A stretch of DNA of 64,000 nucleotides from NCBI GenBank assembly GCA_000182565.2, contig KQ257450.1; one strand, given 5' to 3'. A model generated the notes under the pieces. It saw only the letters and a list, made by a program, of their open reading frames with translations. It ran no database searches and had not been told where the DNA came from. This document shows, piece by piece, positions 7,055 to 47,128 of the stretch. Position numbers and translations under genes: made by a program. Every line of letters starts with the position of its first letter. The stretch's first letter is position 1. Source of the stretch: Spizellomyces punctatus DAOM BR117. Its lineage: Eukaryota.

Positions 7055-7195
7055 AAGAGTATTGTCTTCTGGCAAGGGCGACATACGATAATAGAAACAT
7101 CCCGTTTATGCCGATATCTCAATAAATGAACACCGCAAGTGTATTTTAAATGTCATCATGCAAACGTTTACGCTCAGTTCTATATTCTATCCACA

Positions 7196-40964: not shown

Positions 40965-41278
40965 AAGGGTGTGAAGTGCTAGGTTGGTTGGATGGCTGAT
41001 ACACAGACCTGCGTCCTTGGTGGACGTAGTGCTTTACGAGGGATACCACTTTCTTCTCGCCCCCCTCCTTTCATCTTGTAGTATTCATGCAATACCCCCA
41101 GCTGATATTTTTTTGAGTATAATCTGTTTCGAAGTGCTGCAAAAGGGTTGTATATAAGATTTGCCTCAACAGAGTCCGATTGGAGCTTAATAGTGTTATC
41201 AACTAGAGGTTTATTTTATTATACAAGAAAAGAACAAGTGAACAGCAAAATCAAATCTCATCCATTGAGGCCTAGCTA

Positions 41279-44200
41279 TCATATTGCCCATGTCTCCCCA
41301 ACTGGTCTAAGAGTTCTCCATACTCTTTGTACCACTGAATAAACTCTCCGCCGCAGGTCTTCGGATCGGGATGATACCGTCTAAAGGGCCGAAGTCGAAT
41401 CAGTTTCGATTACGCACTCTGATCCGGTATTATCATACGATGTGGATTTGTTAATACTTACCACATGACTTCTTGGTTGATCTAATTTGTCCCCATACTT
41501 GATGTACTCCACTGTGGCAACAGCAGTTTCCCCATCCAATGTAATAGTCCATTTTGCAATAACATTTGGTGTGGATGTGACTACTGCATCTGACTTTGAC
41601 GTCCCATCTATTTCTTCTGTACCCAGAATGGGTGCAGTCTCTTTGGGTGACTTTTCGGGTTCTTCAGCGGGCTTTGCGGCATCTTCACCGTCATTCGCCA
41701 GCTGCACGGCGTCGTCGCCGAATTGTCGTGCGAGAAACATGGTTGCATACTCGACGGCACTGGTGAAATCGATTTTGCCTGGTCTGGCTTCAACGTCCGC
41801 TTCTGACTCAGACTCAGTTGATTCCGCATTGTCCTGTGGAACTTCCGGCTGCTCGGGGTTTGAGATTGCGATGTCAGCATCTTCAGCGTCGTCTTCAGTT
41901 TTGACCACTTTTTCTTCGGCCGCGCCGTCGTCAGCCGCTGTTTCAAGTTTTGCTACATTTTTAGTGTCATGTTCATTCTCGTCAATGTTTCCACCATCCA
42001 CCGCAGGCGCTGCTTTGCCTACATCGTCGGTAGCCTCTTCAATTGGCTCCAGTTCTGTGATTTTATCGCTCGTTTCATGATGGTGATGGTGCCCATGGGA
42101 TCCTTTTGTAGCTGTTTAATGGAAGGGACTGTATTAATACCAGACAACAAGGTTCAAACCCAATTACGCAACAAATTTATCCATACCTTTCACACTCGCA
42201 GGGCTACTTTCAGCTTGTGCAATGATTGCCACAATAGAATCAGCGATCATGTCATTCACAGCATTGCCCTCCCACTCCAACGTATATCTCCTTAAATCCG
42301 GCGACTGAGTGACCTTGACCGTATCAAACACTCTGAAGCTCCTTTTTCCCGTTTCCTCTATACTTCCATACATCATTTCCAGGTGCCATTTAACCAGACC
42401 TAGGGGAGCACGACAGGGTATTGTTTGGCGTTGCTCGAGTGTGGCGGGCACGAGATCAGTAAAAGAGGGTAGGTCAGACGGTGCGAGGAGATGGTATGTG
42501 AAGTCGCGACAGACAAGAATGCCGCTGAGCGGTGTGTTTGGGAGCGGGGTTTGGGACGCTAAAATACCAATTGTCTAGATATGATGGTCAGCTATGCATG
42601 CAGGGAAACAGAAAGAACAAGAACTGACCTTTGCCATTTTCTCTCCACGAAAATACAGCTCTACTGTTTCGCAGTTTTTTGGTGTATGGATGTGCAGTGG
42701 AACTTCTCGCTCTGCGTATCGGCTTTGTAACGCACTGCGCAAACGGCCCATCTCATTTGAGTCGCCATGTACGAGGATCTAAGGGTAGACACATAATAAT
42801 AGTGTCAAGATCCCAGGCGACACCGCTGCCTGAAACGATGACATGCTCTTAGATTGAAGGGAACGTACCAAATTGGGGGCTCCGACTTCCTCAATGAAAG
42901 CAGAGTTTTCCCTGTAATCCACATGTGCCGAAAACGAGATGTATTCTACCGACAAGCGGAGTGGGAGCTTTGCACCCGACATGGACACAATCTCGTCCGG
43001 TTGGGATAAGATTTGCTGAAAGGCACATGAGAACGCAAATGTACATAAGTATCTGTACAAAGGAAGTTTCTCTTCGCAGCAAAGATACTCCACTCTCTCA
43101 TCTCTTACCTTTCCTAATGTCCCTTCCACGACGTAACCTGGAATGATCACGCCGTTCCGTTTATCAACACACCACAGCTCTAAAAGCTCCCTGGAGAGAC
43201 CATTCTGCGATGCAAATCATGTAAGAGTTAATTCACTGCAGAAACTTGGAGGAGACGGCAGAACAGCAGCAAAGGGAGACGCCTCTTAGAGATCTCACCT
43301 GCAACATCCCTGGACTCGCCATCATGACGCATGGCCCCACGTCATCAAAATGTGACATACTCTTCAGATTGCTAATGTGTTTGAACTGAAATGGATTGCT
43401 AATCTTCACTTGCTGCCGAATCCGTGCATTCATCATGTTTGTATAGGTTTGATATACGGTCATGCACTTCTTGGCCAAGCTTGATGCATAGTAAATTGGA
43501 ACATTATGTAACTCGGGGTGAGCCTGCCAGTATTCGTCCAAAATGAGCAACAGCTCTTGGGCACGTCCGAGAGCAAACACTGGGAGAAGACATCGACCTC
43601 CTCGTTGGACGACATCGTGAACGAGTCGGGTGAACCGGGCTTCGCGCTCCACGCGAGGTTCGTGAGACTGGACTCCATAGGTCGACTCACAAATTAATAC
43701 TTCGGGAGTGACGTTTGGTGGCTTTTCCGCCGCCATCAAATGACGATCTTCTTCACGGGAGTAGTCGCCAGTATATAGGACACGTACGCCCGCAATTTCA
43801 ATTAGGAACATTGCGGCGCCGAGAACATGGCCTGCATTGTAGGGCGTGAATCGGATGCCTTCCACCTCGACTTCCTGGTGATAATCAACAACTTCAATTT
43901 TCTCGTAACTCCGTAACAGGTCTTGCTCATCGTAGAGTTGGTCTTCGGCAGAGAGATTGCTTTTTAATGAAAGCTACAAAGTCAGCTAACTTCCTTTCAG
44001 AGAATGGAATGGGTGAAGGCTCTCGCACCTGATTTTGACGTAGTCAGACAAGAGCCATTTGTAAATTGCCTTGGTAGGATGCGTCATGAAAACTCGGCCC
44101 TTGAAGGTTGTCTTCATAAATACAAAAGGAACAGCCCCATTAGAATCTTGCACAGCAAAAAAAAAGCACAAACAGAGTCCACACAGGGTTTAACAATATT

Positions 44201-44835
44201 TTATTAAAACTTCTTTTCACGGAGACAAAGTATAATAGGTACACATAAGGTTGCCGGCCAGGTAATAGGACACGTATATGCTCCCCATATTTAACCTGAC
44301 AAGGTAACTCTTTGCAAAGATCCACCCGCTCCCCTTCCCCTTTAAGGAGGACTGACTTGGCTATATAACGCGCAGTCCTCACCTTTTCCATAAAGTATGG
44401 TAACGCCGCTGCATGATCAACATGAAAGCTGCGCAACAAAACATTTAATCACTGTCCACTTTCACCTAAACATCTGTCTCCGACTGCAATATTAAGAACG
44501 CTTACTGGCTGATGAGCAAAACGTCGATTGTGGACGGATCAACTTCATCGAGGAAAGGAAGTGCTGCAAGGCCGTTGTATGCCGGATGGAGACCACAGTC
44601 GAGCTACAGGAGAGATTACCATCAATATGTCGCTGTCGCAGAGAGTCAAGAAAGGAAGTCAACCCAGAGCATCTCTGTGAAGACTGACCATAATTGTCTT
44701 TCCCTTATACTCCAACAACAAACAACTCCGTCCCACTTCCTGTCCCGCACCAAGAGGCGTAAGCCTCATAATGTCCCCTTCGTCGCCAACTGGGACTGGA
44801 GTCGGAGCATCCTTGCGCTTCGACGCAGAAGCCAT
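41279..44835 (-). CDS. YSH1: Pre-mRNA 3'-end processing endonuclease CPSF73/Ysh1 (metallo-beta-lactamase/beta-CASP), multi-exon
   Basis: [80 protein letters not shown]; last intron 41381-41461; stop TGA at 41279-41281. Confidence 0.96.
44156..44205 (-). promoter_or_regulatory. Candidate intronic polyadenylation signal in YSH1 intron 3 (44112-44382)
   Basis: Minus-strand AATAAA at 44200-44205 followed by TGTGTGGACTCTGTTTGTGCTTTTTTTTT (GU/U-rich), with a TGTA upstream. Confidence 0.55.
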
Positions 44836-44920
44836 GTTTTCGAGCACGGCTTGAGCTGGCCAGGGAATGTACAAACGGTGCAAATGAAGGTTGAGACGAG
44901 ATTACGTGGACCCGTGCAGC

Positions 44921-45211: not shown

Positions 45212-46820
45212 ATGACCAACATGAATCCAGAAAGCGAACCGTCGTCGTCAACAGCAAGAGACTCGACTGGAAACTCAGCTACCCTAACACTGAACATGTT
45301 CGCAGCCCTCGTGTTACAGATTGAACAGCTCCATTCTCGCATTAAACTACTAGAGTAGACAGTTTTATGTTCACCCCAATCACAAGAGGACGAAATACAC
45401 TCAGAACTTACGGAGCCCGGGTCCCAATCACAGTATCTACAGCACACCCCCTCGAGATGAACAAAACCTACAGAATCAGATAGAAAGGGCCGATGACATT
45501 GGCTTTGCCGTAGACCTGAGCCGGAGCATCCCGACTTTTGATGGAAAAGACGCATATAAGACTTTACTCACCTTCATCGCGAAAATTGGACTGTATCTTG
45601 GATACACAAAAACCATTCGCCGGAAGGGCAAGTGCTCATAGCAGCGTCAAAACTTGTTGGTACAGCACACCACAAGTGGCTAGTATATCAACACGACCAT
45701 CCGTACAACGTCGTCGATTGGGTAACCTTCAGAGATTGCTTTCTTAAGCCGAGCTTCATCAAGCCCAGTGAGAATGTGGTACTATGTACCAAGCAAAAGA
45801 ATATCAAAGAACCCAGCTTCCGCGATATTGCTACGTTTAAAGTCATGCTTGAAGAAACCAGAATAAGCATAACTGACCTTTCTGACTATGATGCGAGAGA
45901 GATCTACTTGGACGCGCTTACTCCAGAAACACAGGAAAGAGTAGTACTATCTCTTGGGATGACGCCCATACGCGAAATCCCTCTCGAACGCCTAGCTCAC
46001 GTTTTGCAGCTAATCGTAACCCTACAAGCACCACAGTGTCGTAACAAACTAAAAGGCATCAGACAAGAAGACTTCGGCGACTTTTGTATGTTTCATCGCA
46101 CGTTTGAAGAAACCAGATTGAGCCTAACTGGCATTTCGGACTATCATGCGAGAGAGATCTACCGGGATGCCCTTACCTTAGAAACATACATTCTTGCAAT
46201 ATTATCTCTTGAGAATGCGCACACGTATCAATTAGATCTCGAAACCCTACAATCCCTCGTTTTGGAGCTGGTCAGAGACCCACAAGAATTCGACGCCATG
46301 TCAAAACTAGCACGAGGACAATACGGTAAAGGCCGATCCTTCAAAGCCAAAAAGCACAAACAACTGCGTACAGAAGGAAGGAATATGAGCCTAGGGGGTC
46401 TAGTGCTAGAAGCAGGGCCACTGTAGGAGATCGCGTCCTGTCATACTTGCGAAAGAAAAAGTCATAGCAGAAGCTAATCAACGAGAATGCGAACACGATC
46501 GTTGCTTGGGCCACAAACAGTAACATTAACAATACCGCACTGCCTGCTTCAAACATATGGCTCGCCGCAGCTGCACACATCTCAGATCGATCAAAACCAC
46601 ATCGCTGTTAGACACCAGTACCATCGTGGCTCATTGACTTAAACAAAAGATTCTGTCAAACACATCGTCAGCTAAATTGATCGCGGATACCCTCACCACG
46701 CCCTTACCAAAGCCACGCTCGGACATCGTCTTGCCATGAATGTCGTTTCTGTCTTAGTTATAGACGCTAGAATAGTATGTAGAAAGGTTTTCGAGCGGTC
46801 TTAAGGGGTGTTGAGGCAAC
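45212..46820 (+). mobile_element. Decayed, internally deleted LTR retrotransposon: gag pseudogene + Ty1/copia-type RNase H tail + PPT and probable 3' LTR start
   Basis: Gag motifs IPTFDGK, VLIAASKLVGTAHHKW and a degenerate CX2CX4H knuckle at 46439-46465. Copia RNase H motifs RSK/HIAVRHQYHR (46588, +1 frameshift) and IADTLTTPLP (46680). PPT TTAAGGGG at 46801-46808, then TGTTGA. Several stops and frameshifts. Confidence 0.78.
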
Positions 46821-47128
46821 ATTACGTAGACCTTAGAGCAGCTGTCGCCCATAGTTGACCGTCTTTCTTGAGAACGCCCGAAATAGAATACATTATGGAA
46901 GTGCGTCATGTTCAAAGTTTCCCAAAGATTGGTTTTCAAGAACCGCAAATAGGGCCGCCTGCCAGAGTGCTCAGAGTTATGGTTTCCTGCAAGTGACTTT
47001 GTTAGATTTTGGTCAAATGATATTTCTATTAGACTCTTCAAGCATCCAGTGTAAATTTATTTAAGGACAACTACAGTGAATACTAGGCACAATTAATATA
47101 TTGATTAAAAGCAACAGCTACCCTCGCG

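Follow-up and report, generated by a model that had tools for sequence, protein, structure and literature searches.

Intron 3 of a CPSF73/YSH1-type gene of Spizellomyces punctatus DAOM BR117 holds a working polyadenylation (poly(A)) site. The site is used in vivo, and its product is a truncated mRNA without a stop codon. The gene lies on the minus strand of a 64,000-nucleotide (nt) stretch of contig KQ257450.1 (assembly GCA_000182565.2), which was analysed as a whole and is hereafter called the window; all positions are those of the window. We are highly confident that the intronic site is real, that it is used and that it yields a stop-less RNA. An initial annotation, made from the letters of the window, had proposed that the site forms an autoregulatory switch, through which the cleavage endonuclease limits its own expression by way of non-stop decay. 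This interpretation is partly supported: its structural half holds, and its regulatory reading is plausible by comparison with known systems.

Results

Tailed reads mark a cleavage site within intron 3

The cleavage site, the hexamer in front of it and the exon and intron that surround them are laid out as follows.

44383..44428, minus strand: exon 3, 46 nt, with a phase-0 end and the HxHxDH metal-binding motif; read depth 8–19 in RNA run X8
44112..44382, minus strand: intron 3, 271 nt, GTGAGG...TGAAG, from the donor G (44382) to the acceptor G (44112)
44200..44205, minus strand: AAUAAA hexamer of the poly(A) signal; the tails start 16 nt downstream of it
44184..44184, minus strand: cleavage site, the last templated base before the tail, with non-templated A in four X8 reads

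We placed the raw reads of a public RNA run with the same species label (X8) on positions 43780–44879, where 185 of 26.4 million records found a place. Records in this run have a mean length of 39 letters (longest 60), and 181 of the 185 placed reads are first mates. Nearly all placed reads lie on one strand, and 150 of the 185 match the window with at least 99% identity. Their mean depth, in bins of 37 nt, is distributed over the region as follows.

43780–43964, exon 5: 0
43965–44186, intron 4, exon 4 and intron 3 past the cleavage site: 0.2–0.65
44187–44408, intron 3 before the cleavage site into exon 3: 16, 34, 50, 47, 34, 19
44409–44445, exon 3: 8
44446–44482, intron 2: 0.8
44483–44593, exon 2: 1.7–5.5
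44631–44704, intron 1: 0–0.24
44705–44852, exon 1: 0.5–3.7

The pile-up of these reads stops sharply at the cleavage point, falling from a depth of up to 50 to about 0.6 just past 44187; across 44184–44382 the depth is 16–50, compared with 0.2–0.6 just downstream. At 44184 itself, four reads from at least two start places carry loose ends (median 20 letters, agreement 1) that are all T on the plus strand, which corresponds to a poly(A) tail on a minus-strand RNA, 16 nt past the AATAAA. The initial annotation had predicted poly(A) addition 10–30 nt past 44200, and these four tailed reads fall within that interval. Since the genome past 44184 is GU/U-rich and has no A run, the tails are non-templated, and internal oligo-dT priming is excluded. 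Together, the tailed reads and the pile-up demonstrate in vivo use of a poly(A) site that lies in an early intron, a feature of the su(f)/CstF-77 type.

Read depth declines with distance from the poly(A) site, exons 1 and 2 lying about tenfold below the intron part, from which we infer that the X8 library is 3′-biased and oligo-dT-primed. In a library with this bias, the zero depth over exons 4–5 is uninformative on the full-length mRNA. An artefact, for which the apparent oligo-dT priming speaks, could arise by internal priming, by DNA contamination or from reads of a paralogous copy. Such an artefact would have to be reconciled with tails that start where the genome has no A run, with coverage of one strand, with zero depth over 43780–43964, with the near-identity of 150 of the 185 reads to the window and with an intron sequence that is unique within the window; we consider it extremely improbable.

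The tenfold difference in depth between the intron part and exons 1–2 could alternatively point to an independent short transcript, which would start near exon 3 or intron 2, end at 44184 and be unrelated to CPSF73 expression. Exons 1 and 2 are covered, however, and introns 1 and 2 are not; depth falls smoothly in spliced coordinates, as expected of a 3′-biased library; and the region has no RNA family match. In addition, the first seven letters of four loose ends at 44428, where exon 3 starts, match the end of exon 2 rather than intron 2, meaning that exon 2 has been joined to exon 3 by splicing in these molecules; the support for this junction consists of short loose ends, among those listed, with no joints among the read results. 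With these observations, an independent transcript is very unlikely.

No contig of the RNA contig runs X1 and X9 could be placed on 43780–44879, which is no proof of absence. From run X2 came a single colinear contig of 676 nt that retains the introns, as genomic DNA would.

Intron 3 carries the elements of a poly(A) site

At 271 nt, intron 3 is about three times as long as any other intron of the same gene, the other eight measuring 85, 77, 69, 94, 93, 90, 54 and 75 nt (range 54–94 nt), and the length, donor and acceptor that the initial annotation had assigned to it are correct. Besides the hexamer, the intron contains three further elements that bear on processing.

44240..44243, minus strand: UGUA, 35 nt upstream of the hexamer
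44157..44183, minus strand: putative downstream element, GU-rich at 44183–44167, followed by nine U at 44165–44157
44139..44143, minus strand: CTAAT, candidate branch point, 28 nt before the acceptor; includes the TAA at 44142–44140

AATAAA, the upstream TGTA and the downstream GU-rich/poly-U tract are all found where the initial annotation had located them. By the known layout of poly(A) sites, 44157–44183 would act as the downstream element. By its resemblance to the consensus, the CTAAT at 44143–44139 is likely to be the branch-point motif.

The 10-letter context of the intronic hexamer, TAATAAAATA (44197–44206, minus strand), recurs at the signal that is expected to end the full-length transcript.

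41210..41220, minus strand: putative canonical poly(A) signal, two overlapping AATAAA, 160–165 nt past the stop codon at 41381; assigned from sequence alone

The sharing of TAATAAAATA may be due to chance in an A/T-rich context, or it may reflect a form of the signal preferred by the organism. The initial annotation had also listed AATAAA at 7121 and, on the minus strand, at 41210–41220 and 47056–47061, and each of these is present.

A variant hexamer, ATTAAA, occurs on the minus strand in intron 2 (44505–44429), intron 4 (44028–43960) and intron 9 (42186–42112). Within the region over which reads were placed (43780–44879), introns 2 and 4 have almost no X8 depth and show no sign that the variant is used.

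Other possible contents of the intron were considered and rejected. A small RNA hosted by the intron found no support in a permissive Rfam scan of 43900–44600, which remained at chance level (best E 0.69, far under gathering scores), and a repeat or mobile element was discarded because intron 3 has no match longer than 14 nt elsewhere in the window or in 80 related loci. The last 13 codons of the intron (44112–44150, minus strand, in the frame of exon 4) resemble the end of exon 3 and the corresponding stretch of human CPSF73. This hint of an old exon-3 duplication at the 3′ end of the intron was not borne out: a PDB search with the 26-residue intron tail alone gave no match at E up to 10, and when the intron was compared by blastx with the protein of its own gene, the best E was 0.7, which is chance level.

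The host gene is of the CPSF73/YSH1 type

The gene that contains the intron has the following coding region.

41381..44835, minus strand: coding region of the CPSF73/YSH1-type endonuclease, 10 exons and 9 introns, 848 amino acids, from translation of the spliced model

The spliced 10-exon model, from 44835 to 41381, gives 848 residues with no internal stops. Exon 5 matches the Pfam families Beta-Casp (E 5e-18) and Lactamase_B_6 (E 3e-12). Among PDB matches, the exon-3 frame aligns to residues 65–84 of yeast YSH1 and residues 68–87 of human CPSF73, and the exon-4 frame extends the human match up to residue 114. Since exons 3 and 4 continue one CPSF73 match, a contiguous protein requires that intron 3 (44382–44112) be spliced out. 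In the spliced translation, a metallo-beta-lactamase domain with HxHxDH is followed by beta-CASP, which is the domain order of CPSF73/YSH1, and by these matches the host gene is identified as a CPSF73/YSH1-type endonuclease.

At 42060–42111 (minus strand), the last exon of the gene opens with a histidine run, after which comes a long acidic tail; it measures about 240 residues and matches no Pfam family.

The short RNA is open to its tail

The short mRNA ends in a composite terminal exon, made of exon 3 and the first part of the intron.

44184..44382, minus strand: portion of intron 3 that the short mRNA retains, forming a composite terminal exon with exon 3; 199 nt, 66 open codons plus 1 nt

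Exons 1–3 followed by 44382–44184 form an open frame of 490 nt without a stop. Translation confirms the earlier claim that the exon-3 frame continues through 80 codons of the intron, the first in-frame stop being the TAA at 44142–44140, past the signal. Cleavage at 44184 falls 42 nt ahead of this codon, and the resulting mRNA is stop-less, as had been predicted. The short form comprises 97 codons from exons 1–3, which encode part of the metallo-beta-lactamase domain, and 66 codons from the intron; its translation would yield the 97 residues, then 66 intron-derived residues and then lysines from the tail. With 97 of 848 residues kept and no stop codon, the short product cannot supply the function of the factor, a property of su(f)/CstF-77-type sites, and with poly(A) added upstream of any in-frame stop, the RNA has the makeup of a non-stop decay substrate.

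The intron-encoded tail belongs to no Pfam family and has no PDB match beyond the exon-3 part, and the 102-residue frame of exon 3 plus intron has no homolog among proteins of 56–179 residues, the size range searched. By these comparisons, the intron-derived tail bears no sign of a conserved protein. A frame that continues for 80 codons from exon 3 might nevertheless encode a truncated protein with a function of its own, perhaps as a competitor in the manner of RBBP6 iso3; an RBBP6 isoform that arises by intronic polyadenylation is truncated and inhibits 3′ processing (PMC11331416). We think there is very little chance that the short isoform works in this way, given that no stop codon lies ahead of the tail, that a mere 97 residues of the metallo-beta-lactamase domain are present, and that they are joined to a tail of the kind just described.

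A predicted hairpin covers the donor of intron 3

The beginning of intron 3 is predicted to fold back on itself.

44347..44380, minus strand: perfect 8-bp hairpin in the predicted fold; intron positions +3 to +10 (44380–44373) pair with +29 to +36 (44354–44347)

None of the other eight introns of the gene has a stem of at least 7 bp at its splice site. The fold energy of intron 3 as a whole equals that of shuffled sequences (z −0.08). In the modelled fold, the hairpin sequesters part of the 5′ splice site and could slow donor recognition. Features that may handicap splicing of this intron are its threefold length and the hairpin over its 5′ splice site, but its donor hexamer, GTGAGG, is ordinary.

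Chance, conservation and read numbers temper a regulatory role

A number of observations count against the view that the site was shaped for regulation, or temper those in its favour, and we weigh them together here. AATAAA occurs 32 times on the two strands of the window, or 0.25 per kb per strand, and is present in 16% of 20,000 dinucleotide shuffles of intron 3; one AATAAA within 271 nt is unremarkable and within chance. TGTA is likewise frequent in the window (3.7 per kb per strand) and carries little weight alone. The open frame of intron 3 exceeds chance expectation and is unusual, a frame open for at least 66 codons arising in 0.8% and one of at least 80 codons in 0.3% of 20,000 dinucleotide-preserving shuffles, but these odds are post hoc, the intron having been picked for such properties. 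Of 20,000 shuffles, 61 contain a perfect 8-bp stem in contact with the 5′ splice site, a figure that is also post hoc, as the stem was spotted after the fold was seen. The donor hexamer GTGAGG is no weaker than the donors of the other introns and similar to them.

Conservation was assessed in related loci obtained by an exon-5 scan of metagenome contigs, of which 80 were kept, and the exon 3/4 junction was located in each. One or both flanking exons were not found in 9 of the 80 loci, 55 have no gap at the junction (cDNA-like contigs or intron-less genes), and 16 have a gap at or near the point. Fifteen of these 16 gapped loci were examined, L079 being left out because its coordinates equal those of L078. 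An intron of 34–101 nt stands at the exact phase-0 position in 14 of the 15, and in L011 the intron lies a few codons away; AATAAA and ATTAAA are absent from the introns of all 15. The initial annotation had named orthologous introns that are short or lack the signal as evidence against the switch, and all 14 same-position introns are short and have no signal, in relatives that are distant (62–85% protein identity for the best one). In L001, the closest locus, introns 1 and 3 occupy the same positions as in our gene and are both 74 nt long, and identity over three exons is 62%, 77% and 85%. Conservation of the kind associated with su(f)/CstF-77-type sites is thus not seen among these 14 loci from distant relatives.

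The presence of an intron at the identical position in 14 loci means that the intron position is old. The length of intron 3, its signal and its long open frame appear, as far as these sequences sample the relatives, to be specific to this lineage. A separate observation concerns L010, which around 1192–1219 is without intron 3 and has an apparent intron at the intron-2 position and, beyond it, a gap that measures only ~26 nt; it probably represents a different lineage with very short introns.

On the side of the RNA, the evidence comes from one run and one condition, with poly(A) tails from four reads, and since reads were compared within 43780–44879 and the canonical 3′ end lies outside this region, they yield no ratio of short to full-length mRNA.

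The most serious alternative to a regulatory device is a site that is used but non-adaptive. The intron would have grown in this lineage and gained a good, cryptic poly(A) signal by chance, and the short RNA would be a by-product without regulatory role, removed by quality control. This would account for the absence of the long intron and its signal from 14 of 14 loci with an intron at the position, for the 16% of intron shuffles that contain AATAAA, and for an intron-encoded peptide without homologs among proteins of 56–179 residues. It accounts less readily for a short RNA that is abundant in its stretch (185 reads, depth up to 50), for the full set of usual poly(A)-site elements, and for a stop-less frame (0.8%) and a splice-site hairpin (61 of 20,000), each of which is unlikely by chance. 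Moreover, whatever its origin, a site that competes with splicing in the CPSF73 gene would respond to cleavage activity. We give a cryptic site real credence, somewhat short of an even chance.

An open frame lies next to the gene

Just upstream of the CPSF73 gene, a plus-strand open frame at 45560–46426 encodes 288 residues with two similar internal segments. It has a weak match to Retrotrans_gag (E 0.004, 17.8 bits), which is under the curated cut-off of 24.1, and this frame may be a retrotransposon remnant adjoining the CPSF73 promoter.

Discussion

Our data suggest how a used site in intron 3 could act on the gene that contains it. By the reads, transcripts start at the gene's own 5′ end, lose introns 1 and 2 and continue through the exon-3 donor; after 44184, 16 nt past the AAUAAA, they are cut and receive a poly(A) tail. 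The hexamer and the GU/U-rich element would be transcribed before the branch point and the acceptor; because they would emerge first, cleavage would compete with splicing and have a head start on a long intron, and splicing may be delayed still more by the 8-bp hairpin at the donor. A transcript otherwise destined for full-length mRNA would be ended by cleavage and rescued by splicing. Translation of the short RNA would carry ribosomes into its poly(A) tail, so that both the RNA and the peptide should go to non-stop decay and ribosome quality control; stop-less, prematurely polyadenylated transcripts typically enter non-stop decay (PMC7471841). Since the gene product is the cutting endonuclease itself, more cleavage activity would mean more truncation and less enzyme, closing a negative feedback.

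We regard this sequence of a used site, competition, decay and feedback as the best explanation overall, with the chances of its being right and wrong about equal. It is probable that the site appreciably lowers full-length output, and nearly an even question, leaning slightly towards doubt, whether it acts as a selected feedback device. As to its nature, a lineage-specific attenuator resembling su(f)/CstF-77 is the likeliest reading. A stronger version, in which the endonuclease sets its own level, the cut is timed by the long intron and the donor-masking hairpin, the stop-less RNA and peptide are destroyed, and the whole is a convergent, lineage-specific su(f)-like circuit in the one subunit for which the literature searched yielded no such loop, is a tentative proposal that we think unlikely to hold in every part.

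By analogy, the present case would work most like su(f) of Drosophila, where an intronic site attenuates the gene by feedback and the short isoform has no in-frame stop (PMC3708835). The two have in common that the gene encodes a core 3′-processing factor, that the poly(A) site lies in an early intron and that the truncated RNA lacks an in-frame stop (PMC3708835). They differ in that su(f) encodes a scaffold protein, the CstF-77 homologue, whereas the gene studied here encodes a catalytic endonuclease, and there is no sequence or intron homology between them. Feedback has been shown experimentally for su(f), whereas here it is proposed; also, the su(f) site is reported to be conserved in D. 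virilis, in contrast to the lack of conservation found here. The initial annotation had attributed a short product without an in-frame stop to CstF-77, which is right for Drosophila su(f) but not for vertebrate CstF-77, where the reading frames of the short isoforms do end in a stop (PMC3708835).

Intron 3 of vertebrate CSTF3 offers a further parallel, being an unusually large early intron with a medium-strength poly(A) site (PMC3708835). Its short isoforms have no apparent protein product, and usage of the site responds to 3′-processing activity: the CstF-77 intronic site is used less when CPSF-73 is knocked down (PMC3708835). In contrast to our gene, CSTF3 has a stop codon in its short isoforms, a weak 5′ splice site, control by U1 snRNP and vertebrate-wide conservation; the splice-site hexamer here is ordinary, though predicted to be covered by a hairpin.

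PCF11 and RBBP6 are also 3′-processing factor genes that restrict their own output through early poly(A) sites (PMC7614891, PMC7471841). RBBP6 iso3 differs in that it is stable as a protein and acts as a competitor of full-length RBBP6 (PMC11331416), PCF11 in acting mainly via transcription termination, and neither is stop-less as far as these sources describe them. In plants, intronic poly(A) sites are found in the polyadenylation factor genes CPSF30 and FIP1(V) (PMC6063945), but the short proteins that arise from them are defined, and the sites are shared by monocots and dicots (PMC6063945). The same authors suggest a role for non-stop mRNAs from coding-sequence poly(A) sites (PMC6063945).

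A loop of this kind for CPSF73/CPSF3/YSH1 was not found in the literature searched, subscription journals and supplementary files being outside its scope. No word starting with "autoregulat" occurs in a review of CPSF (PMC11331416), and neither "intronic" nor "autoregulat" occurs in a review of alternative polyadenylation in fungi (PMC12667328).

The case is compact, with a 271-nt intron, one hexamer, one predicted hairpin and a defined cleavage site, which makes it easy to test by mutation. It also illustrates that a prediction of an intronic poly(A) site made from sequence alone can be checked directly against public 3′-biased RNA data. For scaffold and accessory factors, such as CstF-77/su(f), PCF11 and RBBP6, early poly(A) sites are known to mediate feedback. 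If the same holds for the endonuclease, the catalytic step of 3′ processing would also be under homeostatic control, and such circuits would be seen to arise repeatedly and independently.

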